From: a virus
Strand: one strand, 5' to 3'
Virus record (IMG/VR): IMGVR_UViG_3300032805_000001
Span: 56,104 to 120,103 of that record
Length of the DNA: 64,000 bases
The notes beneath the pieces are model-generated. The model saw nothing but the letters and a program-made list of their open reading frames with translations. It was not told where the DNA came from and ran no database searches. The translations under genes were made by a program, and so were the position numbers. This document shows, piece by piece, positions 536 through 63,476 of this stretch; position 1 is the first letter of the stretch; every line of letters starts with the position of its first letter.

Positions 536-1330
536 ATGATGAAAACTTGGGACACGTTCATGCTCGGCGGTTCCGAGTCCGAGATGGACGTCCTTGAGTG
601 CAGGCTCCGGGAACTGGAGGGGGTTCCGGATCTGCATCACATCATCACCGAAGCTGAGATCACCCACCGCGGTGATCCGAAGCCGCTGTGGTTCAGGGAG
701 TTCCGGGAACGGTTCGCCTCGTGGGGGGAGCGGATCACCTACGTGCACGTCCCGGCGACCGCTCTCCCGTCACGGAGAGACAACCCGGACCCGTGGTCGC
801 GGGAGTACGCGCAGCGGGAGTTCTGCCACGCCGGCCTCGACCAGGCCGACCCCCGCGACATTGTGCTGCACGGCGACCTCGACGAGATCCCCCGGCCCGG
901 GGCGCTCGCCGCGGTCAGCGCGAAAGAGCTGCCGTTCCCGGCCGTGTTCCAGATGCGGCTGTGCATGTACGCCGTGGACTGGCTGCATCCGCTGCCGTGG
1001 CATGGGACGATCCGCACCCGGGTACGGTCGGCGGGGTCGTTCGCCAGTTTGCGGGGGATGCGGAACGACCTGCCGATGATCATGGAAGGCGGGTCGCATC
1101 TGTCGTGGATGGGCGGCACCCCCGCGCACGTCGACAAACTGGACACGCACTGTCACCTGGAGATGACCCCCGAGACGGAGACGGCGCTCCGGTCGGGGGA
1201 GTGGCTGCGGGAAGGCCGGCACAGCGACGGGCACACACTCGAGCCTGTTGACGTGGACGACACGTGGCCCCGGTGGGTGTTCGAGCGGAACTGCCCTAGC
1301 ACATGGTTCCGGCCGAGAAAGGAAACCTGA
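536..1330 (+). CDS. GT17 (MGAT3-like beta-1,4-GlcNAc transferase) family glycosyltransferase
   Basis: DTFM..E.DVLECRLREL, ITEAEITHRGDPKPL, WSREYAQR, GDLDEIP and GGSHLSW motifs. Confidence 0.8.
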   Translation: MMKTWDTFMLGGSESEMDVLECRLRELEGVPDLHHIITEAEITHRGDPKPLWFREFRERFASWGERITYVHVPATALPSRRDNPDPWSREYAQREFCHAGLDQADPRDIVLHGDLDEIPRPGALAAVSAKELPFPAVFQMRLCMYAVDWLHPLPWHGTIRTRVRSAGSFASLRGMRNDLPMIMEGGSHLSWMGGTPAHVDKLDTHCHLEMTPETETALRSGEWLREGRHSDGHTLEPVDVDDTWPRWVFERNCPSTWFRPRKET

Positions 1331-1332
1331 CG

Positions 1333-1980
1333 TTGCTCGTGTCCGTCCTGCTGCCCTCCCGGGGGCGGCCCGGCTCTCTCCACGGAACCATCACCGGCCT
1401 GTTCGAGCTCGCCACCGACCCCGGGCAAGTTGAGATCCTCATCGCCGCCGACCCCGACGACGACGCCACCATCCACGCCCCGCTCCCCGAAGGCAACATC
1501 CGCATGTGGGTCGCCCCGGAACGGTACGGCTACCACGGCCTGCACCACTACGTGAACCACCTCGCCACCATGTCCGGCGCGACGTGGCTGATGCTGTGGA
1601 ACGACGACGCGAAAATGCTCAGCCGGGGATGGGACGCTATCATCGGCGGCTACGACCCGTCCACCGTCATCTGGCCCACCCACAACGACGCCGCCGCCTA
1701 CGGGTGCAACATCTTCCCGATCTGGCCCCGCATCTGGACCGACTGCATGGGCCACGTCGCGCTCAACGCCCACTGCGACTCGTGGATCCAGGACGTCGGC
1801 AACGACCTCGGCCGGACCGGGGAACGGAACACGATCGCGATCATGCACGACCGGTTCGACCTGACCGGCGGTCACAACGACGGAACCTACCGCGACCGGA
1901 TCTACACCAAAGACGAATACTTCCAGATGGAAGAAGCCCGCCACGCCGACGCGGACAAGATCCGGGAAAAGCTCCATTAA
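1333..1980 (+). CDS. GT2-like (GT-A fold) glycosyltransferase
   Basis: VSVLLPSRGR N-terminus, EILIAADPDD, LWNDD; TTG start chosen just after the upstream stop. Confidence 0.7.
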   Translation: MLVSVLLPSRGRPGSLHGTITGLFELATDPGQVEILIAADPDDDATIHAPLPEGNIRMWVAPERYGYHGLHHYVNHLATMSGATWLMLWNDDAKMLSRGWDAIIGGYDPSTVIWPTHNDAAAYGCNIFPIWPRIWTDCMGHVALNAHCDSWIQDVGNDLGRTGERNTIAIMHDRFDLTGGHNDGTYRDRIYTKDEYFQMEEARHADADKIREKLH

Positions 1981-2585
1981 TGGGCGGTTCCGCTTACACG
2001 TACGCCGCCAGTCTCAGCTACACGCCGGAAGAATGCATCGTCGAGGTTGGCTCGGAACGCGGCGAAGGATCCACCGCATACCTTGCGTTTCTCGCCAGTG
2101 AATGCGGCGTCCCGTTCTTCTCGATCGACGTTGACCCGGACGCTGCGGAACGCGCCCGGAGCATCGGGGGCGTGCAGGTTCTTCTTGGTTACGCCGAGGA
2201 TCACCTCGCGAACTGGGATGGGCCGCCGGTCAGGTTCGCCTGGATCGACGGGCACGACTGGCCCTACTCCTGGTGTGCCCGGGAAACCTGGTTCAAAGAT
2301 CAGCAAGCACGGTACGCGGCCCGCGGTGACACCGTGACCGAGGAAGCGAGCATGGCGTCCCATCTGGTGATCGCCAGGCTTATTGATCCGCTGACCCGTT
2401 CAGGAACGGTAGTGATGTTCGACGACACCTGGCGTGACAGGAACCGGCGGCGCGGTGAGGGCCGCTGGCGCGGCAAAGGCGGCACGGCGGTCCCGTACCT
2501 GATCAAGACGGGGGCGTGGCGGCTGACCGGCTGCGTCAACGGCACCGAACCCGATGACGGCTTCGCCCGGCTGGAGAAAATGTGA
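1980..2585 (+). CDS. Class I SAM-dependent methyltransferase (Methyltransf_24-like)
   Basis: IVEVGSERGEGST, SIDVD, AWIDGHD, VVMFDD, GKG motifs; ATG overlaps the upstream TAA. Confidence 0.7.
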   Translation: MGGSAYTYAASLSYTPEECIVEVGSERGEGSTAYLAFLASECGVPFFSIDVDPDAAERARSIGGVQVLLGYAEDHLANWDGPPVRFAWIDGHDWPYSWCARETWFKDQQARYAARGDTVTEEASMASHLVIARLIDPLTRSGTVVMFDDTWRDRNRRRGEGRWRGKGGTAVPYLIKTGAWRLTGCVNGTEPDDGFARLEKM

Positions 2586-3823
2586 ACGTCGGCTGGATTG
2601 GCCTGGGCCGTCTCGGGCTGCCGTGCGCGCTGGTCCTCGACGCCGCCGGGCACACCGTCACCGGCTACGACCTGTCCCCGGTACCAGCAGAAATCCTCAC
2701 CGGCAAGTGTCCCCCGATGCAGGAAGAACACATCACCGGCCTGCTGGCCTCCTCGTCGCTGAAACTGCTCAGCTCACCCCGTGACGTGGCAGCCACCTCC
2801 GATGTTGTGTTCGTCGCCGTGCAAACCCCTCACGCGCCCGCCTACGGGGGAGAAGTACCCGCACCGGAGGACCGGCGGGACTTCGAGTACGCCTACCTTG
2901 TGCAGGCGTGCCGGGACGTGTGCGCCGCCGCAGCGGCCATGGCGAAACCTGTCACTCTCGTCGTCGTGTCCACGGTCCTGCCCGGCACCGTGAACCGGCT
3001 CATCCGCCCCCTCCTCAACCCGCATGTGCGGCTCATCTACTCCCCGGCGTTCATCGCGATGGGCACCACCATCAGCGACTACCGCAACCCCGAGTTCGTC
3101 ACCTGCGGCGTTGACCGGGACGAGGACGCGGAACCGCTACGGGACGTGTTCGGGGCCGTGCACACCCGGCCCCTGTTCGTCACCAGCATCGAAACCGCCG
3201 AACTGATCAAGGTCTTTTACAACTGTTTCATCAGCACCAAAATCGTCCTCGGTAACACGCTGATGGAGATCGCGCATAAGACCGGCGCGGACTGTGACGC
3301 GGTAATTGACGCCCTGACGCTGGCAACCGACCGGATCATCTCCCCGAAGTACCTGCGCGGCGGCATGGGAGACGGCGGCGGCTGCCACCCCCGCGACAAC
3401 ATCGCCATGTCCTGGCTCGCGGAACGCCTCGACCTGTCCTACGACCTGATGGGAGAAGTCACCAGGGCCCGGGAAGCGCAAACCTGGTGGCTCGCCGACC
3501 TCGCCCGCTCCTACGCCGACCAATCCGGCCTGCCGATCACAATCCTCGGGAAAGCCTACAAACCCGGCTCGGACCTCACCGCAGGCTCACCGGCGCTGCT
3601 GCTCGCCCACCAGTTGCGGGACAGGGAACCAGCCCACTGGGATCCCCACGTGGAACCACGATCAGCCTCACCGCTGCAACGCCCGGCCGTGTTCGTAGTC
3701 GCCACCCGGCACCCCGCCTTCAGCAAGGCCTGCTACCCGGAAGGGTCGATCGTCGTGGACCCGTTCGGGTACGTCCCCGACCATTCACACATCACCGTCA
3801 TCAGGGTGGGCCGCAAATCATGA
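2582..3823 (+). CDS. UDP-glucose/GDP-mannose dehydrogenase family
   Basis: GLGRLG Rossmann motif, VAVQTP, STVLPGT, K..YN, GGGCHPRD catalytic Cys, GKAYKP. Confidence 0.93.
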   Translation: MNVGWIGLGRLGLPCALVLDAAGHTVTGYDLSPVPAEILTGKCPPMQEEHITGLLASSSLKLLSSPRDVAATSDVVFVAVQTPHAPAYGGEVPAPEDRRDFEYAYLVQACRDVCAAAAAMAKPVTLVVVSTVLPGTVNRLIRPLLNPHVRLIYSPAFIAMGTTISDYRNPEFVTCGVDRDEDAEPLRDVFGAVHTRPLFVTSIETAELIKVFYNCFISTKIVLGNTLMEIAHKTGADCDAVIDALTLATDRIISPKYLRGGMGDGGGCHPRDNIAMSWLAERLDLSYDLMGEVTRAREAQTWWLADLARSYADQSGLPITILGKAYKPGSDLTAGSPALLLAHQLRDREPAHWDPHVEPRSASPLQRPAVFVVATRHPAFSKACYPEGSIVVDPFGYVPDHSHITVIRVGRKS

Positions 3824-4272
3824 GGAAGCTCAACCTGGGCTGCGGCACCCGTCCCCTGCCGTGGCATGTGAACGTCGACATCGTGCAGATGACCGGCGTC
3901 AACGTCGTCTGGGACCTCGACGTAACCCCGTGGGAGCCGTTCAAAGACGAAGAGGCCGACGAGATCGCCGGCTACGACATCTTCGAGCACGTCAACGACC
4001 CGATCGGGTTCATGTGCGAGTGCGCCCGGATCCTGAAACCCGGCGGCATCCTCAACTTGCACACCAACTACTGGCAGTCCCAGAACGCCTACACCGACCC
4101 GACCCACAAACGGTTCTGCACTGAGCGGACGTTCGAGTACTGGGTGAAAGGCACCGAGTTCAACGACCGGTACGGCCCCGCCTACGCACGCAACGGGATC
4201 GTGTTCGAGTACGTATCCGGCTTCCCCTGCCTGGAGGGCACCGAGCTGGCCGTGAAGATGCGGCGGATCTGA
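3820..4272 (+). CDS. SAM-dependent methyltransferase (type 11)
   Basis: LNLGCG, NVDI, FEH, RILKPGG, DPTH motifs; ATGA overlap with the upstream gene. Confidence 0.85.
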   Translation: MRKLNLGCGTRPLPWHVNVDIVQMTGVNVVWDLDVTPWEPFKDEEADEIAGYDIFEHVNDPIGFMCECARILKPGGILNLHTNYWQSQNAYTDPTHKRFCTERTFEYWVKGTEFNDRYGPAYARNGIVFEYVSGFPCLEGTELAVKMRRI

Positions 4273-4481
4273 TGGGCGGCTACAAGCTACTGCTGGTGCC
4301 AGTTGACGAGATAGACCCGTCATGGCCTGGATCGCCGCTAGAGGCCTTGGTGAGGGCCGAGCGCGGCGTTAGCCCGCTCAGGGCTGGCCCGTTCGAGGTG
4401 ATCGCGGACGTGGGCGAGGACAAGCGCATCAGGATGTCCCGCGCGCTCTACGACGAGATTGAGGTAGTGGACCCCCAGTGA
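4272..4481 (+). CDS. Hypothetical protein
   Basis: Short ORF translationally coupled on both sides. Confidence 0.45.
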   Translation: MGGYKLLLVPVDEIDPSWPGSPLEALVRAERGVSPLRAGPFEVIADVGEDKRIRMSRALYDEIEVVDPQ

Positions 4482-5272
4482 ACCTCTCCCGTACCGCCAT
4501 CATGATGACAGGCTGGCGCCGCCCCCAGTACCTGCGCCGCACCCTCGCCTCCTGGGCACGCGTCGACGGCGTGCACGACGTGGCCGCGTTCACCATCTGC
4601 CTCGACCCGTCCGACCGCACCACCGCCATGCTCCAGGTCGTCCACGAAGCACAAGACGCCGGGATGCCCGTCACCGCCCACGTCAACCCGGTCCACCTCG
4701 GCGTGTCCATCAACCCCGTCGAATCCGGCACCGCAATCCTCAAAGAATACGAGGACGTGGACTACCTCGTCCTCGCCGAAGAAGACCTTGTGGTCGCCGA
4801 CGACGTGCTCCGCTACCTCACCTGGGCCGATGAGACGTTCCGGGGCAACCCGGAGGTGCTCATCGCCTGCGCGCACTCACCGGACAACCCCACTGCAGAC
4901 GCCGACCCGGCCGCGGTCGTACTCCAGCGCCGGTTCCGGTGCTGGATCTGGGGAACCTGGCGGGACCGCTGGTTCGGCACGCTCGAACCGACATGGGATC
5001 GGGCGTACTACACGGGAAACCAGGAAACAGGACAGCAAGCCGGGTTCGACTGGCACCTCGACCTGCGGGTCATCCGCGGCAAAGACCCGCACACCAAAGG
5101 CCGGCAGTACCTGTGCGCCCTGCCGCTCGCATCCCGCAGCCAGAATATCGGCCGGTTCGAGGGCGTGCACGCCGACCCGACCGCCTTTCCCGCAACGCTC
5201 AACCCGTCGTTCCGGGAAACGTTCGGCGAAGTGGAGTACAAGGTTCGGTTCGGCCTGCAGGCGCCAGCCTGA
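4478..5272 (+). CDS. GT-A fold glycosyltransferase (GT13/GT2-like)
   Basis: WRRPQYLRRTLAS, VLAEEDL, WIWGTW..RW, SRSQNIG..GVH. Confidence 0.75.
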   Translation: MNLSRTAIMMTGWRRPQYLRRTLASWARVDGVHDVAAFTICLDPSDRTTAMLQVVHEAQDAGMPVTAHVNPVHLGVSINPVESGTAILKEYEDVDYLVLAEEDLVVADDVLRYLTWADETFRGNPEVLIACAHSPDNPTADADPAAVVLQRRFRCWIWGTWRDRWFGTLEPTWDRAYYTGNQETGQQAGFDWHLDLRVIRGKDPHTKGRQYLCALPLASRSQNIGRFEGVHADPTAFPATLNPSFRETFGEVEYKVRFGLQAPA

Positions 5273-5292
5273 TCACCGGGAAGAACGGGCCG

Positions 5293-6519
5293 TTACATCT
5301 CCTCGAGCTCTTTGAGTACCGGGACCAGGTGGTTGGCGAGCACAAGATCCGCGTCGTACGACTCAGCGAACGTCCGGGCCCGCTTCCGCCGCATCACCGC
5401 CGCCTCAGTGCCCTTCTCCTGGTAGGCCTCCTCGTACGCCGCGGCGATCTCACCGGCGTACGGGGCCTTCCACCAGGCGTTGTGCCCGGTGATGTGACCG
5501 AGCTGGCCGTTCCAGTACGGCTCACCGTCCACCAGCCACCCGGCCCCGCACAGTTCCGTCATCGCCGAATGATCAGTGACAACCGCCGGCGTGCCACCCG
5601 CGGCAGCCTCAACGATCGGCAACCCGAACCCTTCACCATGCGAAGCGTTCGACAGCAGGTCAAGGACCCCGTACCAGGCAGCGAGATTCACCGGCTTGAT
5701 CGCCCCGGTCACATACGTGTACCAGTCGCTGAACCGCACATGCTGATCCAGGTCCAGCGCCGACACGATGGCCTGCAAGTCCAGGGCACCCGGGGAGCGG
5801 GGGAGCGCGTGAATCAGCAGCAGCGCGTCATCATGCCGTTTACGGAACTCCGCGAACGCCCGCAACTGCGCCGGGTACGACTTGCGGATCGTGTCCTTGT
5901 TCGCCCCGTTGATCCCGATCAGGAATGCGTCCTCGGGCAAGCCGAGCTCGCGGCGGTTCTGCGCCGGGTCCGCGAGCGGCCGGTACACCTTCTGCGTCTC
6001 GATCCCGTGCGGGACATACAGCGGGGAGAACCCCGCCTTCCGCAGCTCCTGCTCGCCGTACCGGGACATCGCGATCGGCACTGCCCCGGACCGCTGCAAA
6101 GCCTGCCGGTCCATGATCCCCATCGGCTGGCAGTCGACCGGCATCCAGTTGGCCACCTTCAGGCCCTGCAACTGGCCCGGGTCGAGCACCCACTGATCCA
6201 TCAAGGTGATCACAAAGTCCGCGTTGGTGCGGAGAGCATGCTCGCGGAGGATGTCGTTGCCGTACGGGTCGACCGCGCCGGGCAGGACTGGGACACCGCC
6301 CCAGTCGATCGACATGCCCTGGATGCCGTAGTAGGCGGAAACGATCATCTCGTGGCCGAGAGCTTGCAGGCGGGGAATCCAGACCTGAGTCTGCTGCCCG
6401 TACCCAGTTATCGTGGGGCCGTTGGAGTGCCAGAGGATGCGGGCTACCGGAACCACCCCCGCGGGGTGGTCGTGATCGTCATGAGGTAAGGGTAACGGGA
6501 ACTGCCGCATGTAGCACAT
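5293..6519 (-). CDS. GT4 (GT-B fold) glycosyltransferase
   Basis: TGYGQQT, YVPHGIET, RKSYP, SHGEGFGLPIVEAAAGGTP. Confidence 0.9.
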   Translation of the reverse strand: MCYMRQFPLPLPHDDHDHPAGVVPVARILWHSNGPTITGYGQQTQVWIPRLQALGHEMIVSAYYGIQGMSIDWGGVPVLPGAVDPYGNDILREHALRTNADFVITLMDQWVLDPGQLQGLKVANWMPVDCQPMGIMDRQALQRSGAVPIAMSRYGEQELRKAGFSPLYVPHGIETQKVYRPLADPAQNRRELGLPEDAFLIGINGANKDTIRKSYPAQLRAFAEFRKRHDDALLLIHALPRSPGALDLQAIVSALDLDQHVRFSDWYTYVTGAIKPVNLAAWYGVLDLLSNASHGEGFGLPIVEAAAGGTPAVVTDHSAMTELCGAGWLVDGEPYWNGQLGHITGHNAWWKAPYAGEIAAAYEEAYQEKGTEAAVMRRKRARTFAESYDADLVLANHLVPVLKELEEM

Positions 6520-6615
6520 GGTGGATATGGGGTTCCTTGCATGCTTCTGGGCTACTCCCCCGCTCTGAAATTTTAGAGCGCGAGAAGACGGCTTCTCACG
6601 AATTGATCATGTATC

Positions 6616-7680
6616 ATGGGGGACATGACCATAACCCCGATCGAGCGGATCATCCTCCCGCCCGGCGACGGCCGGCCCGACTGGCTCCCCGTCGCCGTCA
6701 GCGGCACACCCGCCCCGCCACCCGGCATCGACCCGCACGCCGCCTACATCGCCCGGCTCAAGAGCCCGCAATCCAAGCGCGTCATGAACGGCTGCCTGAA
6801 CAACCTCGCCCGCATGATCGCCAGCGACGCCCTCGGCGCCGAACCCGAACTTGACGACAACCCCGGCAAGGCCTTCCCGTGGTGGCTGCTCCGCTACCAG
6901 CACACCTCCCGCCTCACAGCCCTCCTCGACAGCCACCAGCCGCCCTACGCAGCGTCCTACATCAACAAGCACCTCGCGGCGCTGCGCGGCATCCTTGAGG
7001 AATGCTGGAAACTTGAGCTGATGAGCGGCGACGACTACACCCGCGCCAGGCGCATCGAGGACGTCAAGTTTCACCGCGAGCCCGCCGGCCGGCTCATCCA
7101 CGACGACGACATGGCCAGGCTGCTCGCCGTCTGCTCGGACGGCATCATCGGAATCCGGGACACCGCGCTGCTCGCCACGCTGTACTGCACCGGTATCCGC
7201 TGCGAAGAAGCCGCCACCGCGCTCATCGAGCACTACGACGGCCGCGAGCGGACCCTGCGTGTCCTCGGCAAGGGAAACAAGGAACGCACTGTCCCCATCC
7301 ACCCGGCCGGGATCCCCCACCTTGAAACGTGGCTCGCCCTGCTCGGCGACCAGCGCGGGCCGCTGTTCCGCACCGTCGACAAGCACAACCGGATCGGCGG
7401 CGCGGTCAGCCCTGGTGCCATCCAGCGGCGGATCAGCCAGCGTTACCAGCAGGCCGGCATACGCAGGCTCACGGCACACGACTTCCGCCGGACGTTCCTC
7501 AGCGAGTTCCTCGATTCTGGTGCCGACGCGATGCAGGCACGAAAGGTCGCCGGGCACGCGAGCGTCGCCACGACCCAGCTTTACGACCTTCGCGAGGACC
7601 GCGGCATCCGCGAAGCCGTGAGCCGGATGAAGATCGCCCTCCCTGCCCCGCCGTCAGTGGATGCCGTCTCTCCTTCCTGA
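6616..7680 (+). CDS. Tyrosine recombinase
   Basis: Complete catalytic set: TGIR, GKGNK, HDFRR, AGHAS, LYD. Confidence 0.92.
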   Translation: MGDMTITPIERIILPPGDGRPDWLPVAVSGTPAPPPGIDPHAAYIARLKSPQSKRVMNGCLNNLARMIASDALGAEPELDDNPGKAFPWWLLRYQHTSRLTALLDSHQPPYAASYINKHLAALRGILEECWKLELMSGDDYTRARRIEDVKFHREPAGRLIHDDDMARLLAVCSDGIIGIRDTALLATLYCTGIRCEEAATALIEHYDGRERTLRVLGKGNKERTVPIHPAGIPHLETWLALLGDQRGPLFRTVDKHNRIGGAVSPGAIQRRISQRYQQAGIRRLTAHDFRRTFLSEFLDSGADAMQARKVAGHASVATTQLYDLREDRGIREAVSRMKIALPAPPSVDAVSPS

Positions 7681-7691
7681 CCTCTCCCCCC

Positions 7692-7725
7692 GAAAGCCCC
7701 CCGGCCTCCTCCGGGGGGCTTTCCT
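7692..7725 (+). terminator. GC-rich hairpin terminator
   Basis: gaaagccccccgg / ccggggggctttc inverted repeat directly after the recombinase stop. Confidence 0.7.
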
Positions 7726-7741
7726 TATACCTGGAGGCAGC

Positions 7742-8707
7742 GTGACCGTTCCCGCCCGTGTCCCCGGTTTGCGTGGCCGTCTCCCGGTCAAGCCGCCGGG
7801 TGAAAGGTTTGCTCTCCGGTTTGTCCACGAGTACGTCGTCGAGCCGCTTCCGGCACCGTCGTACCCGGTCGACGTGACCGGCGGGATCGGCGACCAGGAC
7901 TGGTTCATGCTAGGCAATGGCCCTGACCCAACCTGTACTACTCATCCCAACGGGGTGGGTGACTGCGGGTTCGCCGGCCGGCAGCACCTTCGCATGGCGA
8001 AGGCCGCGAACTACGGGCAGATGGAAACGTGGGAGACCAGCGACGAACTCGTCGCTGAGTACCTTGCGTACGACGGCGGCCAGGATGCCGGCGTGAACCT
8101 CGCTGACGTGCTTCTGGCGTGGTACAAGGCGGGGAGGATTTTCGGGTTCGCCCCGGTCGATCACACTGATCCGGCTGCGGTCGATTCGGCTATGGAGGCG
8201 TTCAATGGTGCCTACGCCGGTGTGAATCTGACCGATGATGCCAATGACTTGTTCAGCCAGGGTCAGCCGTGGACTGTCGCTGATGGTGAGCAGCCCGATC
8301 CTGACCAGGGTCATTGCATTGTGAAGGTGAAGGCGGACGGGCGGAGTGTCGACGGGTATGTGACGTGGGGGGCGCTGCAGCCGGCGATGGTGGATTGGAG
8401 TGCGGCTTGCCTGGAGGAAGTGTGGGCGGTGATTACTACTGAGGATGAGGCGGCGAAGGTTGACATGGCTGCGCTGGTGGCTGATATCGAGGCCTTGGGC
8501 GGTACGGTTCCCACGCCTGCGCCGGTTCCTCCCGCCCCATCTCCTCCAGCGCCGCCCGCCCCGCCGGTGCCGCCCGCACCGGTGCCACCCGCACCGCAGC
8601 CCGCGAACCTGCTCGAGGAACTCGCCGCCCGGATCCGCATGGTGGCCGCCTCCGCGCAGCAGGACATCACCGAACTGCTCGCGTTCCTCGCCTCACATGG
8701 CTTGTAA
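7742..8707 (+). CDS. Putative papain-like cysteine peptidase with Pro-rich linker
   Basis: MLGN...GDC (Cys), GHCIV (His) and YVTWG; PPAP repeats near the C-terminus. Confidence 0.5.
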   Translation: MTVPARVPGLRGRLPVKPPGERFALRFVHEYVVEPLPAPSYPVDVTGGIGDQDWFMLGNGPDPTCTTHPNGVGDCGFAGRQHLRMAKAANYGQMETWETSDELVAEYLAYDGGQDAGVNLADVLLAWYKAGRIFGFAPVDHTDPAAVDSAMEAFNGAYAGVNLTDDANDLFSQGQPWTVADGEQPDPDQGHCIVKVKADGRSVDGYVTWGALQPAMVDWSAACLEEVWAVITTEDEAAKVDMAALVADIEALGGTVPTPAPVPPAPSPPAPPAPPVPPAPVPPAPQPANLLEELAARIRMVAASAQQDITELLAFLASHGL

Positions 8708-8994
8708 CCGCCTGCTTTTCGTGTAGCCTTTTCGCTGGGTTCTGATTCTGGCACCTCCAGCCGGCCCCGGCTGAGCAACGTGATCCGGCCCCACTGAGGC
8801 GATCACGGACCCGTCCTGGCAAGTCGTTCTGGCCCCGCCTGAGCGCCCCGATCGCAGCAACTTCTCCTGGCTCCACCGGGGCGAAACATAACGGGTAGTA
8901 CGCAAAACATACCAGTGGTTATCACGGGCAGTAGTGGACACGGAAGGGGCTGTAGTGAGACGCTTCATCGGTCGGTCGTGTCAGGAGGCCGCTG

Positions 8995-9522
8995 ATGTTG
9001 ACGCGCATACAGCTGTTCGAGAAGATCCGCAGGGACCGGCGCCTGGAGCCGGACGTGTCGCAGCGAGAGCTGTCGCGGCGGTATAACGTGCACCGCAGGA
9101 CGGTGCGGGCGGCGCTGGAGTCAGCGATCCCGCCTCCTCGCAAGAAACCCGCCCGAGGCCGGCTCTCCGTCATAGGCCCCGCCGCGGTGTGGATCGACGC
9201 GATGCTGCGGGAAGACCTCACGGCCCCGCGCAAGCAGCGTCACACGATCCAGCGCATCCACGACCGGCTGCGGATCGAGCGGAGCCTTGACAGCGGCGAC
9301 CACTCGGCGCCGTTCCCCGTCGAACTGCCCATGCGCTGCATCGGGGCCGGGTGCAAGCCGGCCGGCGTCGTGCTGGATATGTTCGCGGGGACCGGGACGA
9401 CGTGCGAGGCGGCACGCAAGCTCGGACGGAAGGCCATCGGCATCGACCTGAATCCGGCCTCGCTGGACTTGGCCATACGACACCGGCTGAGCCAAGGGGA
9501 CTTGTTCGGTGATGCGGCGTGA
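8995..9522 (+). pseudogene. istA: Chimera: IstA N-terminal HTH fused to the C-terminal part of an N4/N6 DNA methyltransferase
   Basis: IRRD..SQRELSRRYNVHRRTVRAAL..APRKQRHT..RI.DRL (IstA) followed by H.APFPVELPMRCI..VLDMFAGTGTT..GRKAIGIDLN (MTase motif I). Confidence 0.8.
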
Positions 9523-9941
9523 CCTGCGTAGAGATAGCGGCGTTCCTGGCCGCCCGGCTGGGCGAGGACGAGGCGACGGCGAAGGCGGCCACGGCCGGCC
9601 CGTGGGAATTCGAGGGCGACGATCCGACCGATGACGAGCTCTACTCCATCCATGACGGCATCGTTGACCTCACGGGCGTGACCGTGGCGTTCACCAGGGA
9701 CCGGCAGGTGGCCAACGGTCGCCACATGGCCCGCCACGACCCCACCCGGACGATCCGCGAGGTCGAGGCCAGCCGGGCGCTCATCGAGCGATATAAGCGC
9801 GCCTGCGCCGTGCGAGAGTCGGTCGTGAGCTTCACCGCCGGCCAGGACGACGGTTACCGGCAGGCATGCCTTGATGCGATCCGCGACCTCGCCGCCATTC
9901 ATAGCGACCATCCCGACTACCAGCAGGAATGGAAGCCGTGA
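9519..9941 (+). CDS. DUF6221-like phage protein
   Basis: AFLAARLGEDE...ARHDPTRTIREVEA...SDHPDYQQEW. Confidence 0.8.
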   Translation: MTCVEIAAFLAARLGEDEATAKAATAGPWEFEGDDPTDDELYSIHDGIVDLTGVTVAFTRDRQVANGRHMARHDPTRTIREVEASRALIERYKRACAVRESVVSFTAGQDDGYRQACLDAIRDLAAIHSDHPDYQQEWKP

Positions 9942-10306
9942 ACGACCTGCTTGCGTTCGTGAGCGCCCGCCTCGACGAGGACGAGCAGGAGGCGAAGTAC
10001 GCCCTGGAGCGCCTGTCCGAGTGCGCGGGAATCCAGGTCTCCGACCCTGAAGACGGCGGCAACATCGGGCACATGGTCGCCTACTCGTTCCACGCCCGCC
10101 GCCACGACCCCGCCCGCGCACTCCGCGAGGTCGAAGCTAAGCGCGGCATCATCCGCGAGCATGAGAGCAGGGACGGTCGCTGCCGCGTCTGCACGGCTAT
10201 CCACGACGGGCGCGCTACCCGGTTCCGCGCGCCGTGCCCGACTCTGCTCTCCCTCGCTGCCGTCTTTAGCAGCCACCCCGCCTACCAGCAGGAATGGGAG
10301 CTATGA
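9938..10306 (+). CDS. DUF6221-like phage protein (tandem paralog)
   Basis: LAFVSARLDEDE...RHDPARALREVEAKR...SHPAYQQEW. Confidence 0.8.
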   Translation: MNDLLAFVSARLDEDEQEAKYALERLSECAGIQVSDPEDGGNIGHMVAYSFHARRHDPARALREVEAKRGIIREHESRDGRCRVCTAIHDGRATRFRAPCPTLLSLAAVFSSHPAYQQEWEL

Positions 10307-10445
10307 ACACGCAATCAGGATCGGTGAGCGAAGCCGAGGCCATGGACGAAGCGCTCGCCACCGCGGCCGTGCTCGGTGCAGCCCTCGCACGCTTCGAGAA
10401 TGCGGTCGACCGCCTGAAAGAGGCGCAAGCCGGGAAGATAAGCGT

Positions 10446-10697
10446 ATGACGGAAAGCACCGATAACCGCATAGCCAAGGCCCTCAGCATCGCTCCGGACG
10501 GCATGCATGACGGCGCGCACCACAAGGACTGGGTGATCGACCAGATCGTCCGCGCCCTCACCGGCTGCCCCGTGGTCACCAAAACCGCGACGGACTACCG
10601 GGGCCAGGAATACGACTACGAAGCACAGGGAGAGTCGACGCAGTACAAGGCTTTCGTCGCAGCGAACGACGGCTGGAGTGAAGGGGTGGCGCCATGA
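10446..10697 (+). CDS. Phage hypothetical protein
   Basis: DGAHHKDWVIDQIVRAL...W.EGVAP motif recalled from small phage proteins. Confidence 0.6.
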   Translation: MTESTDNRIAKALSIAPDGMHDGAHHKDWVIDQIVRALTGCPVVTKTATDYRGQEYDYEAQGESTQYKAFVAANDGWSEGVAP

Positions 10698-11109
10698 CCG
10701 AAGAGGAAAAAGGCCGGGAAACCCGCTATCCCCCCGTGATCTCCAGGTCAGCCACCAGCTTGGCGAACTCGGCGTCAGAGGTCTCGTATTCGCTCTTGCT
10801 GGCCAGGAACTCGCCGTCACACATCAGCCGTACCTCGTTGGCGTACTGGATGAAGGCGTCCAGCGCCTCTTTGCTGACAACGACACGGGACATGTCCGTA
10901 ATTCTTCGCCCTGTCTTCACCCGCTGGCCGGGAGTACGTCTCACGCTAGCAACGTGCTCCGTCGCGCCGCAGAGGCTTAACGCCGCAACCAGGCGGCCTG
11001 ACTTCACCTCTGCGGCGCGACGATCAGGGGCGCATCCCGTGAGGGTTCCCGCAGTTCGCGCGGGGTGGTGCGCCCCAGCCACCGCAAGCCACCCTAGCAG
11101 CAGGACGCG

Positions 11110-11391
11110 ATGATCGACATCAGAAGCACAGGCCTCCAGTTCCGCGGCGTCCCGGTCACTCTTATGAGCGAGGGCGTGGAGGCGCTGTTCCGCCGTTGCG
11201 GCGAGAATGTGGGAACCGGCGTTGGCATGATCCTGCAGACCGCCACGGATCTCGTTGAGCCGCTTGGCTGCATACTCCAATCCGATGCTGTCGGCGGCGT
11301 GACGGTCCTGGTCGAGCGGTTCGATTGCACATACGACTTCGGCCGTCACGAGGGCGGACGCTGGTCCGTCTTCCTGCCGAGCGAACGATAG
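11110..11391 (+). CDS. Hypothetical protein, paralog of 57461-57739
   Basis: IDIRS.GLQFRGVPVTL.SEGVEALFRRCG is shared with the second copy. Confidence 0.65.
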   Translation: MIDIRSTGLQFRGVPVTLMSEGVEALFRRCGENVGTGVGMILQTATDLVEPLGCILQSDAVGGVTVLVERFDCTYDFGRHEGGRWSVFLPSER

Positions 11392-11582
11392 TGGGGAACC
11401 GGAGTGCGGAGATTACACTCGCTGAGCGGCTGCGCCTGTTCTGGTGGAACTGGGTGCGCCGGCCGCTCATCAATGCCCTGTGGCGGCTGCGGAGACGGCG
11501 GTGATCCCGCAGGAGGCATTTGGGGAGGGCCGCACTGACCCGCCCTGTCAGGGGGCAGGCCGGTCGCACTCATCCACCAAGC

Positions 11583-11909
11583 TTAACGGCGATTTTCCTC
11601 GCTGCGCGTTTCAAGTTCACCAGCGAGGAGCGCTGCCGCCTCGGCTTTCGTCGGGGCAGCCACTTTGATGCCTGTCGGCTGGTGGAGGAGACGCACGGTC
11701 GCACCAGGACCACGGAAGACCTCAATGCGGCAGTCCTGCAGGAAGGCGGGTTCGAGGTTGAGGTGGAGCAGGATGCGCTTCACGTCAGCTTCCAATCCGG
11801 TAAGGCGCTGTTCTAGCCGTTCGCCGCGTGACTTGTCCTGCGCGTCGGCCATCGCGGCGTAGCTTCCCTTGCCGTGAACGCGGTCCCAGTCATCGATGTC
11901 AGCACCCAT
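11583..11909 (-). CDS. Hypothetical protein with a release-factor-like VR..H.PTGI segment
   Basis: ORF track; TVRLLHQPTGIKV. Confidence 0.45.
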   Translation of the reverse strand: MGADIDDWDRVHGKGSYAAMADAQDKSRGERLEQRLTGLEADVKRILLHLNLEPAFLQDCRIEVFRGPGATVRLLHQPTGIKVAAPTKAEAAALLAGELETRSEENRR

Positions 11910-11945
11910 GCAGCGGACCTTACCCTGCCGACGGCGCGAGCGGTG

Positions 11946-12197
11946 ATGGGGAACCGGGCCGGGCTGACCCAGCTCTGTCAGGGAGAGGATCGACCGGCCC
12001 GATTCCTGAAACCCATGCTAGGGCCTAGTCAGGTGACCGCAGCAGGGCCGGAGTGGAGCCAAAACTCCTTGCGATCCGGCTCGTGATCCGGGGCGGCCGG
12101 GTGGGGCCAGATCTAGCTGCTACGACAGCACCCGTGGAGACAAGTGGAGCCAGATGAAGTTGCTCTCCTGGAGCCAGAACACGTTGCCCTACTCACT
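11946..12197 (+). repeat. ~250-bp repeat (IS21-like right end), copy 1
   Basis: Near-identical to the reverse complement of 57061-57312. Confidence 0.95.
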
Positions 12198-12224
12198 GGG
12201 TTCGTTAGTTTCGTTAGTTTCGGG

Positions 12225-12268
12225 ACGCCGGCCAGCCGCCCTGCGGGGGTGGCTGGCCGGCGTTTTTT
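12225..12268 (+). terminator. Rho-independent terminator
   Basis: acgccggccagcc...ggctggccggcgt stem followed by a T tract. Confidence 0.75.
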
Positions 12269-12457
12269 GCGTGCCCGGGTAACCGCCGCGGGAACGGGTT
12301 CACGGGGAACAGGGCCGGGGATACGGTCCCGGTCGCCGGCTTGTCCAGTGAGCCGAGAGCGTTGCCGAGGCTTTCACCGAACATGGGTGTCTCCTTACAC
12401 ATGGTTCCGGCCCAGCCGCCTGAACGGGCAGCCGGGCCGGAGACTTTGGTGCCCCGA

Positions 12458-13279
12458 TCAGGGGCAGTTGTAGAAGCCGGGTGTCAGGCTGGTGACCGGG
12501 TTGGTGCAGCCGACGACCTTCCAGATCGAGTTGGCGGTGTCGCTTTCCGGGTAGAGCATCTGCCACGTGCCAGGGCCGCCCCAGCCGGTGTCGTTGAGGG
12601 TCTCCAGGGTGTTGTGGGAGTGGAAACCGTTCGACACGGTGTCCTCGGCGAGGACGTAACCGCCGGTCACCGGGACCGGGGAGAAAACCTGCCACTGGTT
12701 TGCGCTGGTGACGATCCCCGGGTTGCCGGCGCCGCCGTTAGGTGTGCCGGGAGTGAAGGCGGCCCCGGCCGAACTGCATGTACGGAGCACGGTCCACCAG
12801 TGCTTCCAGCCGGCCGGCTTCTCAACCGACAGGCACAGGTTCGCTGAGCTGTTCCAGTCGGCCGTTGTCACGGGGCCGCTGCCGGTGTGGCCGAGCGGCA
12901 CGCCGTCCGGCGTGTACATGGCGACGTATTCGCCCTGCCCGTCGAGCGGGTCCTTCACCTGAACGCCGCCCAGGTTGTACTGGAAGACCGTCCAGTCTTC
13001 GCTGCTGTCACTGGCGCTGTACGGCTCGATGACGACCTTGGAGTTCCAGACCGAACCGGTCGCCGACAGCGTGAGGCTGGAGGCGTTGGGCTGCGTGCCG
13101 TTGCCGAGGCCCGGAAGGTAGATGCCGCCGCACCCGATGGGCGGCGACGTCGGGTGGGCGATATTGGTGCACGTTGAGGTGGTGGCGCTGGCCGGGCCTG
13201 CGAGCGCGGCGGCTCCCATCCCCCCGGCCAGAGCAAGCACGCCGGCACTGGCTGCAAGCTTTCCCTTGAAACGGTTCAA
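12458..13279 (-). CDS. Secreted protein of unknown function
   Basis: Sec-type signal peptide (MNRFKGK..LALAGG..ASA); rich in Cys, Trp and Gly. Confidence 0.7.
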   Translation of the reverse strand: MNRFKGKLAASAGVLALAGGMGAAALAGPASATTSTCTNIAHPTSPPIGCGGIYLPGLGNGTQPNASSLTLSATGSVWNSKVVIEPYSASDSSEDWTVFQYNLGGVQVKDPLDGQGEYVAMYTPDGVPLGHTGSGPVTTADWNSSANLCLSVEKPAGWKHWWTVLRTCSSAGAAFTPGTPNGGAGNPGIVTSANQWQVFSPVPVTGGYVLAEDTVSNGFHSHNTLETLNDTGWGGPGTWQMLYPESDTANSIWKVVGCTNPVTSLTPGFYNCP

Positions 13280-56804: not shown

Positions 56805-57062
56805 CTAGAGCGATTCGGTTTCCCAGAGATAGGCGTCGTACAGGTCGCCGAGGAACACGCGCAGTTCATCGCGGCCCTTTTCGACGCGCCGGTAAAGCGC
56901 CTCCGCCTTGCGCGAGTCGTCGTCTGCGCCGTACTCGTCGCACCACTCCTCAAAGCTTCCCGTGTTCTCAAGTCCGGCCGCGTCGGACACAAAACTGTTC
57001 AGTACCTCATCGGCCCTCGGCTCATAGGTGAGCGCCTCACCCATGCCGAACATCGTTTTAAG
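56805..57062 (-). pseudogene. 3' part of a phage gene interrupted by the IS21-like end
   Basis: SFEEWCDEYG.DDDSRKAE motif; the 5' part is replaced by the element terminus at 57063. Confidence 0.6.
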
Positions 57063-57312
57063 TGAGTAGGGCAACGTGTTCTGGCTCCAGGAGAGCAACT
57101 TCATCTGGCTCCACTTGTCTCCACGGGTGCTGTCGTAGCAGCTAGATCTGGCCCCACTTCACTGGCCCGGATCACGACCCGGATCGCAAGCCATTTTGGC
57201 TCCACTCCAGCCCTGCTGCGGTCACCTGACTAGGCCCTAGCATGGGTTTCAGGAATCGGGCCGGTCGATCCTCTCCCTGACAGAGCTGGGTCAGCCCGGC
57301 CCGGTTCCCCAT
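57061..57312 (-). repeat. ~250-bp repeat (IS21-like right end), copy 2
   Basis: Reverse complement of 11946-12197 with a few clustered mismatches. Confidence 0.95.
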
Positions 57313-57460
57313 TCTCCGGGCGGCAGGGTCCGCAGCGGGCGCGGGTCGAAATACATGCCGTGCGCTTCGGCCATATGCTCAGCCGTCTCGACCTCATCGA
57401 ACAGGTGCGCGTACTCGTGGCCGCACAGCGAGCACACAGCTACGATCTTCATGTTTAGCC

Positions 57461-57739
57461 TTACCGTTCTCTCGGCAGGAACACGGACCACGCGCCGCCC
57501 TCATGGCGGCCCTGCTCGAATGTGCAGCCGAACCGCTCAGCCCAGACGGCGACATCGCCGACTGCGAACGACAGGACTATGCAGCCGGCCGGGTCAATGT
57601 CCTCGGCCGTGCGCAGGATCAAGCCGATGCCGGTCTCGACGCTCTGACCGCAACGGCGGAACAGCGCCTCCACGCCCTCGCTTATCAGGGTGACCGGGAC
57701 GCCGCGGAACTGGAGTCCCGCGCTTCTGATGTCGATCAC
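57461..57739 (-). CDS. Hypothetical protein, paralog of 11110-11391
   Basis: IDIRSAGLQFRGVPVTLISEGVEALFRRCG...GRHEGG.WSVFLP.ER. Confidence 0.65.
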   Translation of the reverse strand: MIDIRSAGLQFRGVPVTLISEGVEALFRRCGQSVETGIGLILRTAEDIDPAGCIVLSFAVGDVAVWAERFGCTFEQGRHEGGAWSVFLPRER

Positions 57740-58128
57740 TGAAGCCACCCCTCGTAGTCCGGGTGGTCATTCCAGATCGCGGCGCGGATCGCGATGACCT
57801 GGCGCAGGATCATAATCTCGGTATCGACGCGGAGGCGCTCGCCGAGTTCTTCGACCTGCCGGAGCTTGGCCAGCAGCGAGCGGTCCGCCTCGATCTCGCG
57901 GAGCGTCCGGGCCGGGTCATGGAGGACGATGTGGTCGGCGGCATAGCTTCCCCTGATAACCCCGAAGGACTCGTCAAGGCTGTCGTAGAGCGACACCGCT
58001 GATGGCAACGGCGAATCGGGAGCAACCGCCCTATCCCAGGGGCCAGGAAATCACAACTGCGTCGCCGTCGCCGCTGCCTCGTACTCGTCCAGCCGGGCAG
58101 TCAGGAACGCGATCAGGTCGGTGGTCAC
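57736..58128 (-). pseudogene. DUF6221-like gene with an in-frame TGA
   Basis: VTTDLIAFLTARLDE start is in frame with HDPARTLREIEA...DHPDY; stop codon at 58051-58053. Confidence 0.7.
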
Positions 58129-58427
58129 GGACAGTCCCCGCAATCGCAGTCACGGGGATGCTCGCCCCATCCCACGGGCTTGCCCGCATCCGGGTGACCG
58201 GACGGCACCTGCCCCGGCTGCCTGGACTCCTTCGGTCTGCGCCCCGGCTTGCGCTCGGTGGCGAGGAATTTTGTCACATCCGACTCCAGCCATACCGGCC
58301 CCATCGCTAGCCGCTGAACGGGCTCCGGGAAGTCGGGGTGCGCGGCGAGCTGGCCCGCACGCGTTCTGGACACGCCGGCAAGGCTGGCCACTTCGGCCAG
58401 CCCTGCGAGCTTCGGAAACCGGGTCAT
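58125..58427 (-). CDS. AlpA-like DNA-binding protein
   Basis: GLAEVA.LAGVSR.R..QL...PDFPEPV..L..GPVW...DV. Confidence 0.75.
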   Translation of the reverse strand: MTRFPKLAGLAEVASLAGVSRTRAGQLAAHPDFPEPVQRLAMGPVWLESDVTKFLATERKPGRRPKESRQPGQVPSGHPDAGKPVGWGEHPRDCDCGDCP

Positions 58428-59105
58428 CCGTAGTCCTTCTCGTATTGCGCAAGCAGGCGATGCGCGAGCAGGTCCCTCGTGACCGCGCCGCGCGTAGCGC
58501 CCAAACGGGTTTCGTAGCCGCATGAGCAGGTCACGTCGTAGCCGGGCCAGACTCCCCGCATCCTTGCCTGGCGCCTGATCCGTTCACGCCTGCCATTGAC
58601 CATCGCTCCGGTATAGACCCACCATGTGGCGCGGTGCTCGCGCATGGTCTCCGGGGAAACCGAGGTGACGCTCTTGGTCGTGATAGCGCCGCTTCGGCGC
58701 GGTGCCGTGAGCGCAGCACCACGGTCAAATGCTGGGTCTATGTCCGGGCAGCCGCGCCCCCCTGCTTCCCGTTCTCCTGCGCCAGCGGGGCCAGCCGCTT
58801 CGTCCGGCCCCGCGAGGTTCGCGATGCGCCTGTCAGGCATTGCGGCAGGCCTCGCACTGGCCGCCATACTCGCCGGCGCCGCGCGCTGACGGGTAGAGGG
58901 TGAAGTAAGAGTCGCGGTGGGACTGGCAGAGGATGCGGCCTGTGGTGTCGGTGTGGTCGTGGTAGACGCGCAGGGCCTGGTTGCTGACCTTCTGCCACTC
59001 GGCGAACTTCGTGCTCATGTCCCGCTCCCTTACGTCGTTTGCTTATGACTTAAGAGTACGGCATCCCCTGGATGTTGTCAAGGGTTTAGCTGTAATGTCC
59101 GCAGA

Positions 59106-59327
59106 TCAGTTCACGGTTCCGTCTAGCGAAACCCCTAGCGCAGCCGCGAGCTTGGCGGCGATGGAGAACGCCACGTCGCGGCCGTTCTCCGCACGCCACG
59201 CTACGGACTTGCTCGTGATTCCGGCCGCCTCGCACAGTTCCCGGACGCTCAGGCCCTGGTCGCGTCTCGCCTGCTTGAGACGCGCGGCCAGTGCGGTGAC
59301 CGCCGGGTCTGGATCGGCGCCAGTCAA
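59106..59327 (-). CDS. XRE HTH regulator
   Basis: LKQARRDQGLSVREL..AGI...RAENG...KLAAALGVSL. Confidence 0.8.
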   Translation of the reverse strand: MTGADPDPAVTALAARLKQARRDQGLSVRELCEAAGITSKSVAWRAENGRDVAFSIAAKLAAALGVSLDGTVN

Positions 59328-59332
59328 CTTCC

Positions 59333-60130
59333 TTACCCGTTCTCCGCGCGAGCGCGGGTCTGTGCCAGCCTGAACGACTGGGTGCCGGTCTCGATGATGT
59401 GCGCGTTATACGTCAGCCGGTCCACGATCGCCGCGCACAACCTGGGGTCGGTGAAGGTGCGTTTCCACTCGGAGAACGGGGCGTTGGACGCGACCGCCAT
59501 CGCCCGGCGTTCCTCCCTGTCGGTGAAGATCTGGAATAGCAGCTTCGCGCCGGTCTTGTCTAGCTCGAGATAGCCGAACTCGTCCAGGCAGAGCAGGTCA
59601 CACCGGCCGTAACGGGCGATGACCTTCGTTAGCTGCCGTTCATCCTGAGCTTCGGCGAGCTCGTTGACGAGATTGGCGGCAGTGGTATAGCGGACCTTCA
59701 GCCCGGCCTCGGCGATGGCCGTCCCGATCCCGATGAGCAGGTGAGATTTCCCGGTGCCGGAGTCGCCGACCAGGCAGAGCGGCTGGCCCGCCACCACCCA
59801 TGCGGGGTGGCAGAGGGTGGCGATCTGCTCGGGTGAGATCTCCGGGTTGGCGGTGTAGTCGAAGTCCTCGATCCGCTTCGGCCGCGGGAACGCCGCCTCG
59901 CGGACCAGGCGTATCTTGCGGCGCTCGTCCCGGTGCTGCATCTCCTCGGTGAGCAGGGCGGCCAGGAAGTCTTTATAGGTTGCCCGCTCCTTGAGCGCCT
60001 GCTTGACGGCTTCTTCGTATCCCTCGCGGATAGCGGGCAGATGCAGGGCACGGGCGGCCTGCTCGATCACCATGTCGGCCGGGTCGTCGTCCACCACGGG
60101 CGGCCGGGCGTCCCTCGTCGCCGCGGTCAT
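59333..60130 (-). CDS. istB: IS21 helper ATPase IstB
   Basis: L.LP, A.FP..K.IEDFDY, GDSGTGKSH, LCLDEFGY, SN.PFSEW, AIVDRL, SFRL. Confidence 0.95.
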   Translation of the reverse strand: MTAATRDARPPVVDDDPADMVIEQAARALHLPAIREGYEEAVKQALKERATYKDFLAALLTEEMQHRDERRKIRLVREAAFPRPKRIEDFDYTANPEISPEQIATLCHPAWVVAGQPLCLVGDSGTGKSHLLIGIGTAIAEAGLKVRYTTAANLVNELAEAQDERQLTKVIARYGRCDLLCLDEFGYLELDKTGAKLLFQIFTDREERRAMAVASNAPFSEWKRTFTDPRLCAAIVDRLTYNAHIIETGTQSFRLAQTRARAENG

Positions 60131-60765
60131 GGCGCACCTCGCCGGGTGCGGCGGGACAGCAGTTCGTCATAGGCTGCTACCGATGGGAGGGGCCTGGTGT
60201 CCTCGGGTATCGGCGTCCGGCGTTCCGCCAGCGTGATCACGTCAGCCTGTCCTGTCTCTGTCGCTGCTGTCTTGACGGGTGCCACCTCGGGCGCGTCCTG
60301 GCTAGCCTTGCGCGCTTCGATGGCCACGAGCTCGGGGCTCGCCGCCCCGGCTTCCAGCGCCACCATGATTCCCGCGATCACCTGCGCGGCGGCCATGCGG
60401 CGATGCAGCAGCAGCACCTCGATAAGCGCCCTGGTCCCGGCCGCGTCGCCGTGCGCTTTGCGAGCCGCCGCCCAGAACGCGTCATGCGCAGTGGTGAACG
60501 TTCCTGCCTCGCGGGCCTGGGCGAGCCCCGTGGATCCGGCCAGCGCGCCGGGCCGGACCATCAGGATCTCCAGGTAGTGATCCAGCGTGTCCCGGTAGTC
60601 GTACCGGCGGGTCAGCCGTGCGTACTGGGCGATGACCTCGTTGCGGTCGAACACCAGCAGCTCGTTGGCCCGCAGGCTGACCCGGACCTGCCGGCCGATG
60701 AACCGTGCCGGGACCGAGTAGTAGCACTGGCGGATGACGATCCGCGAGTCACGGCGGACGGTCAC
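60127..60765 (-). pseudogene. istA: IS21 transposase IstA, C-terminal fragment (no DDE core)
   Basis: YSVPARFIGRQVRV.L, LDHYLE.L..RPGAL.GST.L.QAR, GTRALIEVLLLHRR, PLPSVAAYDELL. Confidence 0.85.
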
Positions 60766-63400: not shown

Positions 63401-63476
63401 CCGTTCCAACCTGAACTAGCTGGCCAGGGGGCTGGTATGGGCCGGTTGGGTGATGCTCGTACTGGTGGGAGCGGCT

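Follow-up and report, generated by a model that had tools for sequence, protein, structure and literature searches.

A probable deletion derivative of a cargo-bearing IS21-family lineage on a viral record

Within a window of 64,000 nucleotides (bases 56104-120103 of the 120,103-bp IMG/VR virus record IMGVR_UViG_3300032805_000001) we analysed a 3,453-bp element, hereafter element A (window 8743-12195), which runs from a TG at 8743-8744 to a CA at 12194-12195 between two copies of an 8-bp target-site duplication. Our analyses make it probable that element A belongs to an IS21-family lineage and has become non-autonomous through an internal deletion, the complete form of the lineage being a transporter insertion sequence (tIS), a term applied to an insertion sequence (IS) with passenger genes unrelated to transposition (PMC3129680). 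This reading builds on the ends, the 8-bp duplication, the architecture of the family and a deletion joint, all of which were directly observed. An earlier first-pass annotation of the same DNA had ascribed to element A IS21-type ends, a target duplication, a missing transposase and cargo, and these attributions are supported here; it had explained them by an exchange of the transposase for phage genes, and that explanation is weighed below.

A small gene of 93-107 aa, here called gene X, lies just inside the right end and is oriented toward it in element A and in two further copies, B and C; its counterpart in the complete relatives has 90-95 aa. Relatives with gene X were drawn from 17 metagenome contig loci (the complete relatives come from soil and wetland contigs), which were retrieved with an alignment of gene X and compared with copies A and B by blastn and tblastn. 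A second set of 31 loci, from named genomes and metagenome-assembled genomes (MAGs), was retrieved by relatedness to IstB.

Ends, repeat boxes and target duplication

Target duplications in the IS21 family range from 4 to 8 bp, and duplications of 8 bp were found in element A and in its relatives L051 and L062. Direct reading of both copies of CTGGGTTC bore out the TG...CA ends and the perfect duplication reported by the first-pass annotation; a match at 8 of 8 flanking positions in exact register has a chance of about 4e-5, by a hand estimate that takes 0.28 per position at a G+C content of ~68%. Four repeat boxes had likewise been described at each end, and the same boxes were recovered, with cores GGC[CT]CC at 8763, 8787, 8831 and 8869 on the left and complementary cores GG[AG]GCC at 12055, 12103, 12146 and 12170 on the right, their spacers being 6-8 nt long and not uniformly the six that had been proposed. 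A repeat comparison paired left and right boxes arm to arm (six pairs), and the layout of four boxes per end matches that of L006, L051 and L055. Over the entire 120,103-bp record a looser form of the box motif has 59 matches, and same-strand clusters (at least three boxes, at most 180 nt) occur at three sites only, namely the left end of element A, its right end, and a right end at 57081-57196. The left end is 91.3% identical to that of the full-length relative L051 (91-94% across comparisons).

In IS21 elements IstA binds to several repeats within each end, the reactive 3'-OH is that of the terminal CA, IstB is required for correct target duplications, and IS21 and IS5376 have terminal repeats L1/L2 and R1/R2, with a duplication of 5 bp in IS5376 (PMC10122671); ISMyo2 has three boxes in its left inverted repeat (IRL) and two in its right (IRR) (PMC4608216).

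The right end recurs on the minus strand of the record at 57061-57312, where it closes copy B; it is 95.6% identical to that of element A, with ~95 identical terminal bases. Copy C, a right end with gene X, lies in a second viral contig, L044 (G001), at 2940-3981. When the three copies are aligned, outer homology stops exactly at the terminal CA and inner homology at a common point, TGGGGAACCG; the outer flanks differ, and three insertion sites are thus represented. The modal architecture, seen in seven of the 14 metagenome loci that include a right end, has gene X ending with its stop codon directly against the ~250-bp right end, an adjacency that explains the shared inner boundary; a 555-bp segment that separates the two in element A is absent there. 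The right end was also considered as a 250-bp miniature inverted-repeat transposable element, a candidate rejected on the grounds that its inner boundary is, in the modal architecture, the stop codon of X and that its two borders do not repeat each other in inverted orientation. A reading as a Mu-like transposable phage was rejected as well.

The deletion joint and the lost transposase

Directly inside the left end, an in-frame fusion open reading frame (ORF) joins the helix-turn-helix (HTH) DNA-binding portion of IstA to the end of a methyltransferase. IstA residues 3-91 were aligned by tblastn, and 95 of the first 96 residues are identical to those of the IstA of L051, after which the two diverge. 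The istA remnant noticed by the first-pass annotation is therefore real, its length being 96 codons, not ~95; the last istA-matching base is 9281, which places the deletion joint at 9281/9282. From about residue 100 onwards the ORF is occupied by the methyltransferase end (Pfam N6_N4_Mtase, E 1.2e-19, profile positions 138-219 of 221). As expected of a stub, the istA part scores 40.6 bits against NF033546, under the cut-off of 160; for this model and for NF038214 the NCBI IS21 equivalog cut-offs were used.

Element A thus keeps only IstA residues 1-96 and is a derivative of the IS21 family, not an autonomous member of it. The DDE transposase domain is missing from it and present in L051, and no gene for the AAA+ helper IstB follows istA, as one does in copy B and L051. 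Neither IstA residues 92-322 of this protein nor an intact IstA was found anywhere in the 120-kb record. The fusion protein forms one 90% cluster with a single member, found on five contigs, which probably represent one locus in sibling samples.

Assembly support

Unitigs of three public sequencing runs cover the outer junctions, the left one bridged by at least 30 bases and the right one reached with 28 element bases on the unitig, and the istA/methyltransferase joint is bridged without differences in runs X3 and X5. A single 5,510-bp unitig of X5 spans 8300-11026 with no differences, while unitigs of X3 cover 8743-9775, 9746-11080, 11172-11975 and 12168-12600. Two unitigs of run X1 break shortly before the istA/methyltransferase joint, at 9239/9252, and a variant skipping 11390-11947 was seen in run X6.

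Complete relatives and other deletion derivatives

The first-pass annotation had called for copies with other interiors and for an autonomous partner, and both were found, the former among the metagenome loci and viral contigs and the latter as relatives with istA and istB (L051, L055). L051 contains a complete element of 4,516 bp (620-5135) with the 8-bp duplication GCTACCTC, an IstA of 533 aa (NF033546, 211 bits) and an IstB that reaches 250 bits with NF038214 (cut-off 200). The element of L055 is 6,033 bp long and includes in its cargo a full-length N6_N4_Mtase (E 3.7e-22, profile positions 2-220 of 221), which aligns to the fragment in element A and which, at full length, is confined to L055 and L056. 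Transposition genes and passenger genes thus lie within one pair of ends in L051 and L055, as expected of a tIS; element A lacks a transposase of its own.

The order in complete elements is left end, istA, istB, variable cargo, gene X and a ~250-bp right end. Similarity among copies ceases directly at the istB stop, and from there to the start of X the distance is 1.1-2.9 kb (L051, L055, L057, L059 and copy B). A full-length istA is present in three of the 17 loci (L051, L055, L056), istB, whole or partial, in six (L049, L051, L055, L056, L057, L059), and the left end in five, complete in L051, L055, L056 and L062 and cut by the contig start in L052. In 14 of the 17, as in copies A, B and C, X is followed by the right end, and the contigs of the remaining three stop 28, 63 and 198 nt past X. 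Thirteen right ends are complete (10 of these 14 loci plus A, B and C) and have 12 different flanks, one flank being common to L054 and L055; their homology breaks off precisely at the CA. A DUF6221 gene followed by X occurs in A, in B and in 7 of the 17 loci.

The family yields internal deletion derivatives repeatedly, as L062, L052, L049 and copy B demonstrate besides element A. L062, of 1,951 bp, has both ends and the duplication GGTGCGGC, with istA codon ~19 joined into a DUF6221 gene; in L052, whose left part is 99% identical to element A, istA codon 36 is joined to the last 17 istB codons; and in L049 an internal istB fragment alone remains. A 13-nt microhomology at the L052 joint was considered and dropped, merely 2-3 bases being in common on inspection.

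Origin of element A

Since cargo of this kind is also present in autonomous relatives with istA and istB, it is part of the autonomous element, and element A is most simply a single internal deletion derivative, the one joint at 9281/9282 explaining its only gene fragment. IstA would have inserted element A, or an ancestor of it, at CTGGGTTC, and IstB would have determined the 8-bp stagger. A single deletion would have left istA codon 96 in contact with the final third of the cargo methyltransferase gene and removed, in the same event, the DDE domain, istB and the upstream cargo. Element A has all parts needed in cis and none of those acting in trans, and an intact relative could move it in trans because both ends are still intact; more speculatively, the retained HTH stub of IstA might bind the end boxes and damp transposition. 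The cargo bay of the lineage can accommodate genes of several kinds: those for an XRE repressor, for an excisionase-like HTH protein and for an N6/N4 DNA methyltransferase, as well as DUF6221 genes.

Several points weigh against this reading. No second site of element A or of its joint was found, and we regard transposition of the deleted form as possible but doubtful. An empty site with a single CTGGGTTC, envisaged by the first-pass annotation, was searched for and none was found, which is no proof of absence: no unitig joint skips 8743-12203 in four runs, the exact 33-nt left-flank pattern retrieved nothing from the viral contigs, and relatives of the left-flank gene (L037-L039) are ~71% identical, with similarity stopping at window 8505. 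L055 lacks a target duplication: the 9 bases that precede its left end (GGCTCGCAC) do not recur in its own right flank but stand immediately past the right end of L061. L055 and L061 probably describe one insertion, and the L055 contig is probably a chimera assembled from two copies. The methyltransferase of L055 shares only ~49% identity over 45 residues with the fragment in element A, from which it follows that the direct parent has not been seen. Element A is moreover a mosaic (left end 99% to L052, right end 95.6% to copy B, gene X only 76-86%), so that part of its interior could have been exchanged by recombination after insertion. The constant presence of X is partly circular, the family sample having been gathered through this gene. 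Finally, the short unitigs fail to bridge the repeated right end (~11975-12168); the misassembly that the first-pass annotation associated with unspanned internal junctions is countered for the left end and the internal junctions, which unitigs cover, and not for this stretch.

One alternative overlaps with internal deletion and differs from it in timing alone: a complete or cargo-free IS21 element would have been inserted at CTGGGTTC and its interior rebuilt in place by homologous recombination or gene conversion, with further copies of the family or phage DNA as partners, the present unit never having transposed. The mosaic of nearest relatives, the 555-bp block between 11-bp repeats and the restriction of element A to one locus fit such a history, as does copy C, where the right end and X continue into phage replication genes with no left end within 22 kb. 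We nonetheless consider it unlikely, given that one simple deletion suffices for element A, that the cargo is ancestral to the lineage, and that three elements of very different size (A, L051 and L062) have perfect 8-bp duplications.

The proposal of the first-pass annotation, an IS21 shell that captured phage early-gene fragments in place of its transposase in the manner of plant Pack-MULEs, which take up pieces of host genes, would account for an element without transposase and with one gene fragment, for copies that differ in their interior, and for the distant actinophage homologues of the DUF6221 and methyltransferase genes. It founders on the autonomous relatives: captured fragments should replace the transposase and the partners should be free of cargo, yet gene X (L051, L055/L056) and the full methyltransferase (L055/L056) already stand alongside istA and istB, and DUF6221 genes occur in other copies of the family. 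Its 'phage gene pieces' are borne out for the methyltransferase, a piece that the joint at 9281/9282 explains, and not for the remaining cargo ORFs, which are whole; X, for its part, is without a match in 50,697 phage records. Capture therefore appears very improbable to us.

We dismiss as least credible a misjoining of the ends or interior during assembly through repeats common to copy B, which could invoke the 95.6% identity and ~95 identical terminal bases of the two right ends and the unitig breaks at 11080-11172 and 11975-12168, but which is opposed by a matching 8-bp duplication that pairs both flanks, by the unitigs of three runs over the outer junctions and of X3 and X5 over the istA/methyltransferase joint, and by the exact fusion protein on five contigs.

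Cargo and gene X

The features of element A, and those of copy B, are collected in Table 1.

Table 1. Window coordinates of the features of element A and copy B
Feature	Position	Strand	Evidence or remark
Left target-site duplication copy, 8 bp, CTGGGTTC	8735..8742		direct reading
Left end (IRL)	8743..8994	+	begins TGATTCTGGC; four IstA-type boxes
Fusion ORF, 175 aa, in frame: IstA 1-96 + methyltransferase C-terminal ~75 residues	8995..9522	+	tblastn, Pfam
DUF6221 gene a, 140 aa	9519..9941	+	Pfam E 5.9e-28; phrog_6326
DUF6221 gene b, 125 aa	9929..10306	+	Pfam E 1.3e-22; phrog_6326
Two small ORFs	10294..10697	+	51 aa without family match; 83 aa matching phrog_23179 (unknown function)
55-aa ORF	10726..10893	-	homologues between X and right end in L062 and L063
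Structured non-coding block, ~130 nt	10959..11090	+	directly upstream of gene X
Gene X, 93 aa	11110..11391	+	conserved neighbour of right end in lineage
555-bp segment between X and right end	11392..11946		flanked by 11-bp direct repeat TGGGGAACCGG
108-aa ORF inside 555-bp segment	11583-11909	-	no family match
Right end (IRR)	11947..12195	+	four boxes; terminates GCCCTACTCA
Right target-site duplication copy, 8 bp, CTGGGTTC	12196..12203		direct reading
Copy B, 5'-truncated, same lineage	57063..60763	-	without left end
Copy B right end	57063-57311	-	
Copy B gene X	57461-57748	-	
Copy B DUF6221	57736-58008	-	
Copy B XRE-type HTH gene	59106-59327	-	begins few bases past istB stop
Copy B istB	59333-60130	-	intact; NF038214 253 bits (cut-off 200)
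Copy B istA C-terminal part		-	about IstA aa 323/330 to end

DUF6221 gene a is ~35% identical to sequences in seven actinophage records, and the methyltransferase piece has distant matches in actinophages and plasmids; judged by such matches the cargo looks partly phage-type, whereas X appears specific to the lineage. No full-text literature on DUF6221 was found. A further DUF6221 gene lies at 63046-63495 (-), beyond the truncated istA of copy B, and the window therefore holds at least four paralogues (two in A, one in B and one outside), which provide ample homology for recombination between the cargo and the surrounding DNA. The two copies of the direct repeat TGGGGAACCGG occupy 11392-11402 and 11947-11957, and in the ORF between them the stretch ...RLLHQPTGIKV... 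may resemble the region after the GGQ motif in peptide-release-factor-like proteins.

The ~130-nt block is nearly invariant in six copies (A, L047, L048, L052, L057 and L058), while the coding DNA beside it differs by 10-25% between copies. It is predicted to fold into two long stems in succession, the first of 15-16 bp and enclosing a hairpin (minimum free energy -77.4 kcal/mol, z -4.35), and almost no covariation is seen because the copies are too alike. Rfam gave no match at E <= 0.1 over 8600-12400, a range that includes the block.

Relatives of gene X form 46 protein clusters, nearly all metagenomic, and a profile search of 1.84 billion proteins returned 31 representatives at E <= 0.001, among which some matches, to long repeat proteins, are probably spurious. 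X had no match in Pfam, PHROG, NCBIfam or PADLOC, and tblastn found none in the phage records mentioned above, in 72,556 plasmids, or in 32 loci (the 31 IstB-retrieved genome and MAG loci and the plasmid locus L004). The structural model of X shows a confident fold (mean predicted local distance difference test score, pLDDT, 90.6). Foldseek matched it to nothing in the PDB at E <= 0.001, and the protein atlas gave no usable match; VIA-align placed MqsR at the top (Z 4.7), followed by many RelE, ParE, YoeB and HigB structures at Z 2.6-4.0, values under the tool's noise guide. The model thus offers a weak lead toward a resemblance to RelE/ParE/MqsR-type toxins.

Copies B and C and the setting of element A

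Copy B follows the order of the complete elements from the C-terminal third of istA onwards: istB, the XRE-type HTH gene, small ORFs, DUF6221, X and the right end. The DNA that precedes the break in istA shows no relation to the family, and one cargo protein weakly resembles excisionase-type regulators. The right end of copy B has replaced the start of a flanking gene (56805-57104, -), whose first 14-15 codons are now IS-derived. In copy C no left end, IstA or IstB was found in the 22 kb that follow, and its 'interior' passes directly into same-strand genes for phage replication; copy C has the appearance of cargo that recombination has joined to a phage genome, or of an element whose left part was lost.

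On the viral record, a tyrosine integrase gene (6616-7680) and then a 348-aa gene directly precede element A, and a terminator-like hairpin directly follows it. Sugar-modifying genes lie upstream and a serine recombinase gene downstream.

Implications

A broader reading, which we hold only tentatively, is that of a distinct actinobacterial IS21 lineage with X fixed by the right end and a hypervariable bay that may shuttle phage-type early genes among phages, prophages and integrative elements, its deletion derivatives (A, L062) being moved in trans as cassettes. What is shuttled would comprise an orphan methyltransferase, XRE and Xis-like regulators, DUF6221 genes and the ~130-nt block, and X would have a possibly RelE/ParE-like fold. 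If this is true, the lineage constitutes a bacterial counterpart of non-autonomous cargo transposons.

IS21 serves as a structural model for transposases under the guidance of an AAA+ partner, and descriptions give it two genes; the lineage extends this plan by a third, conserved gene and by a bay of variable cargo. Taken together with several natural deletion derivatives in which both ends are preserved, these features allow direct tests of what is needed in cis and in trans, of the role of X, and of a transfer of phage-type genes, orphan methyltransferases among them, from one mobile element to another by IS21-type elements. For annotation, the lesson is that what looks like an IS fragment next to phage genes can form one transposon.

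Comparison with known systems

With canonical IS21 elements the lineage has in common TG...CA termini, several boxes per end, the gene order istA-istB and a short duplication of the target. It differs in that 1.1-2.9 kb of cargo and X follow istB, whereas in canonical elements (L006, L011, L013, L019, L022) 83-304 nt separate istB from the last right-end box; element A, furthermore, has neither the DDE domain nor istB. Among named genomes, those with the nearest elements are of Micromonosporaceae (L006, Micromonospora; L007, Winogradskya humida), with IstB 83-84% identical, and L006 is a canonical 3-kb IS21 with the same layout of four plus four boxes. A blastn search of the 31 IstB-retrieved loci with the right end and the non-coding left end gave no match, the ends being too diverged and the box layout alone being in common.

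A right-end box cluster was detectable in 11 of these 31 loci. The last box lies ~600-670 nt beyond istB in five Streptomyces/Kitasatospora loci (L015, L016, L017, L024, L028) and ~1.2 kb beyond it in L007, which has two ORFs there that lack a family match, so that extra DNA behind istB is not unique to the lineage of element A. The L007 element (3984-7966, Winogradskya humida NBRC 14915) has ~1 kb between istB and a four-box right end, and its flanks share GCCGCC. L007 or the Streptomyces/Kitasatospora group could provide a starting point for laboratory work on IS21 elements with cargo.

L051 and L055, in combining transposition genes and passenger genes within one pair of ends, correspond to a tIS, from which element A departs by the loss of its transposase. 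Element A and L062, which combine intact IS ends and a duplication with passenger genes but lack a transposase, correspond instead in structure to a mobile insertion cassette (MIC), defined as IS ends around passenger genes, without transposase and movable in trans (PMC3129680). What element A adds is a visible origin, the internal deletion of a cargo-bearing parent.

MICBce1 is an example of a MIC, and plant Pack-MULEs and deletion derivatives of the Ac/Ds type are non-autonomous elements with the ends of an autonomous family. Like Ds, the lineage of element A comprises many independent internal deletions; unlike in Pack-MULEs, no evidence was found in element A of host or phage fragments captured in place of the transposase, and the cargo precedes the loss. 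The full-text literature yielded no description of an IS21-family element with passenger or accessory genes, a search that did not cover ISfinder and TnCentral, where a name may already exist. IS-ended elements with passenger genes are already known, as MIC without a transposase and as tIS with one (PMC3129680).

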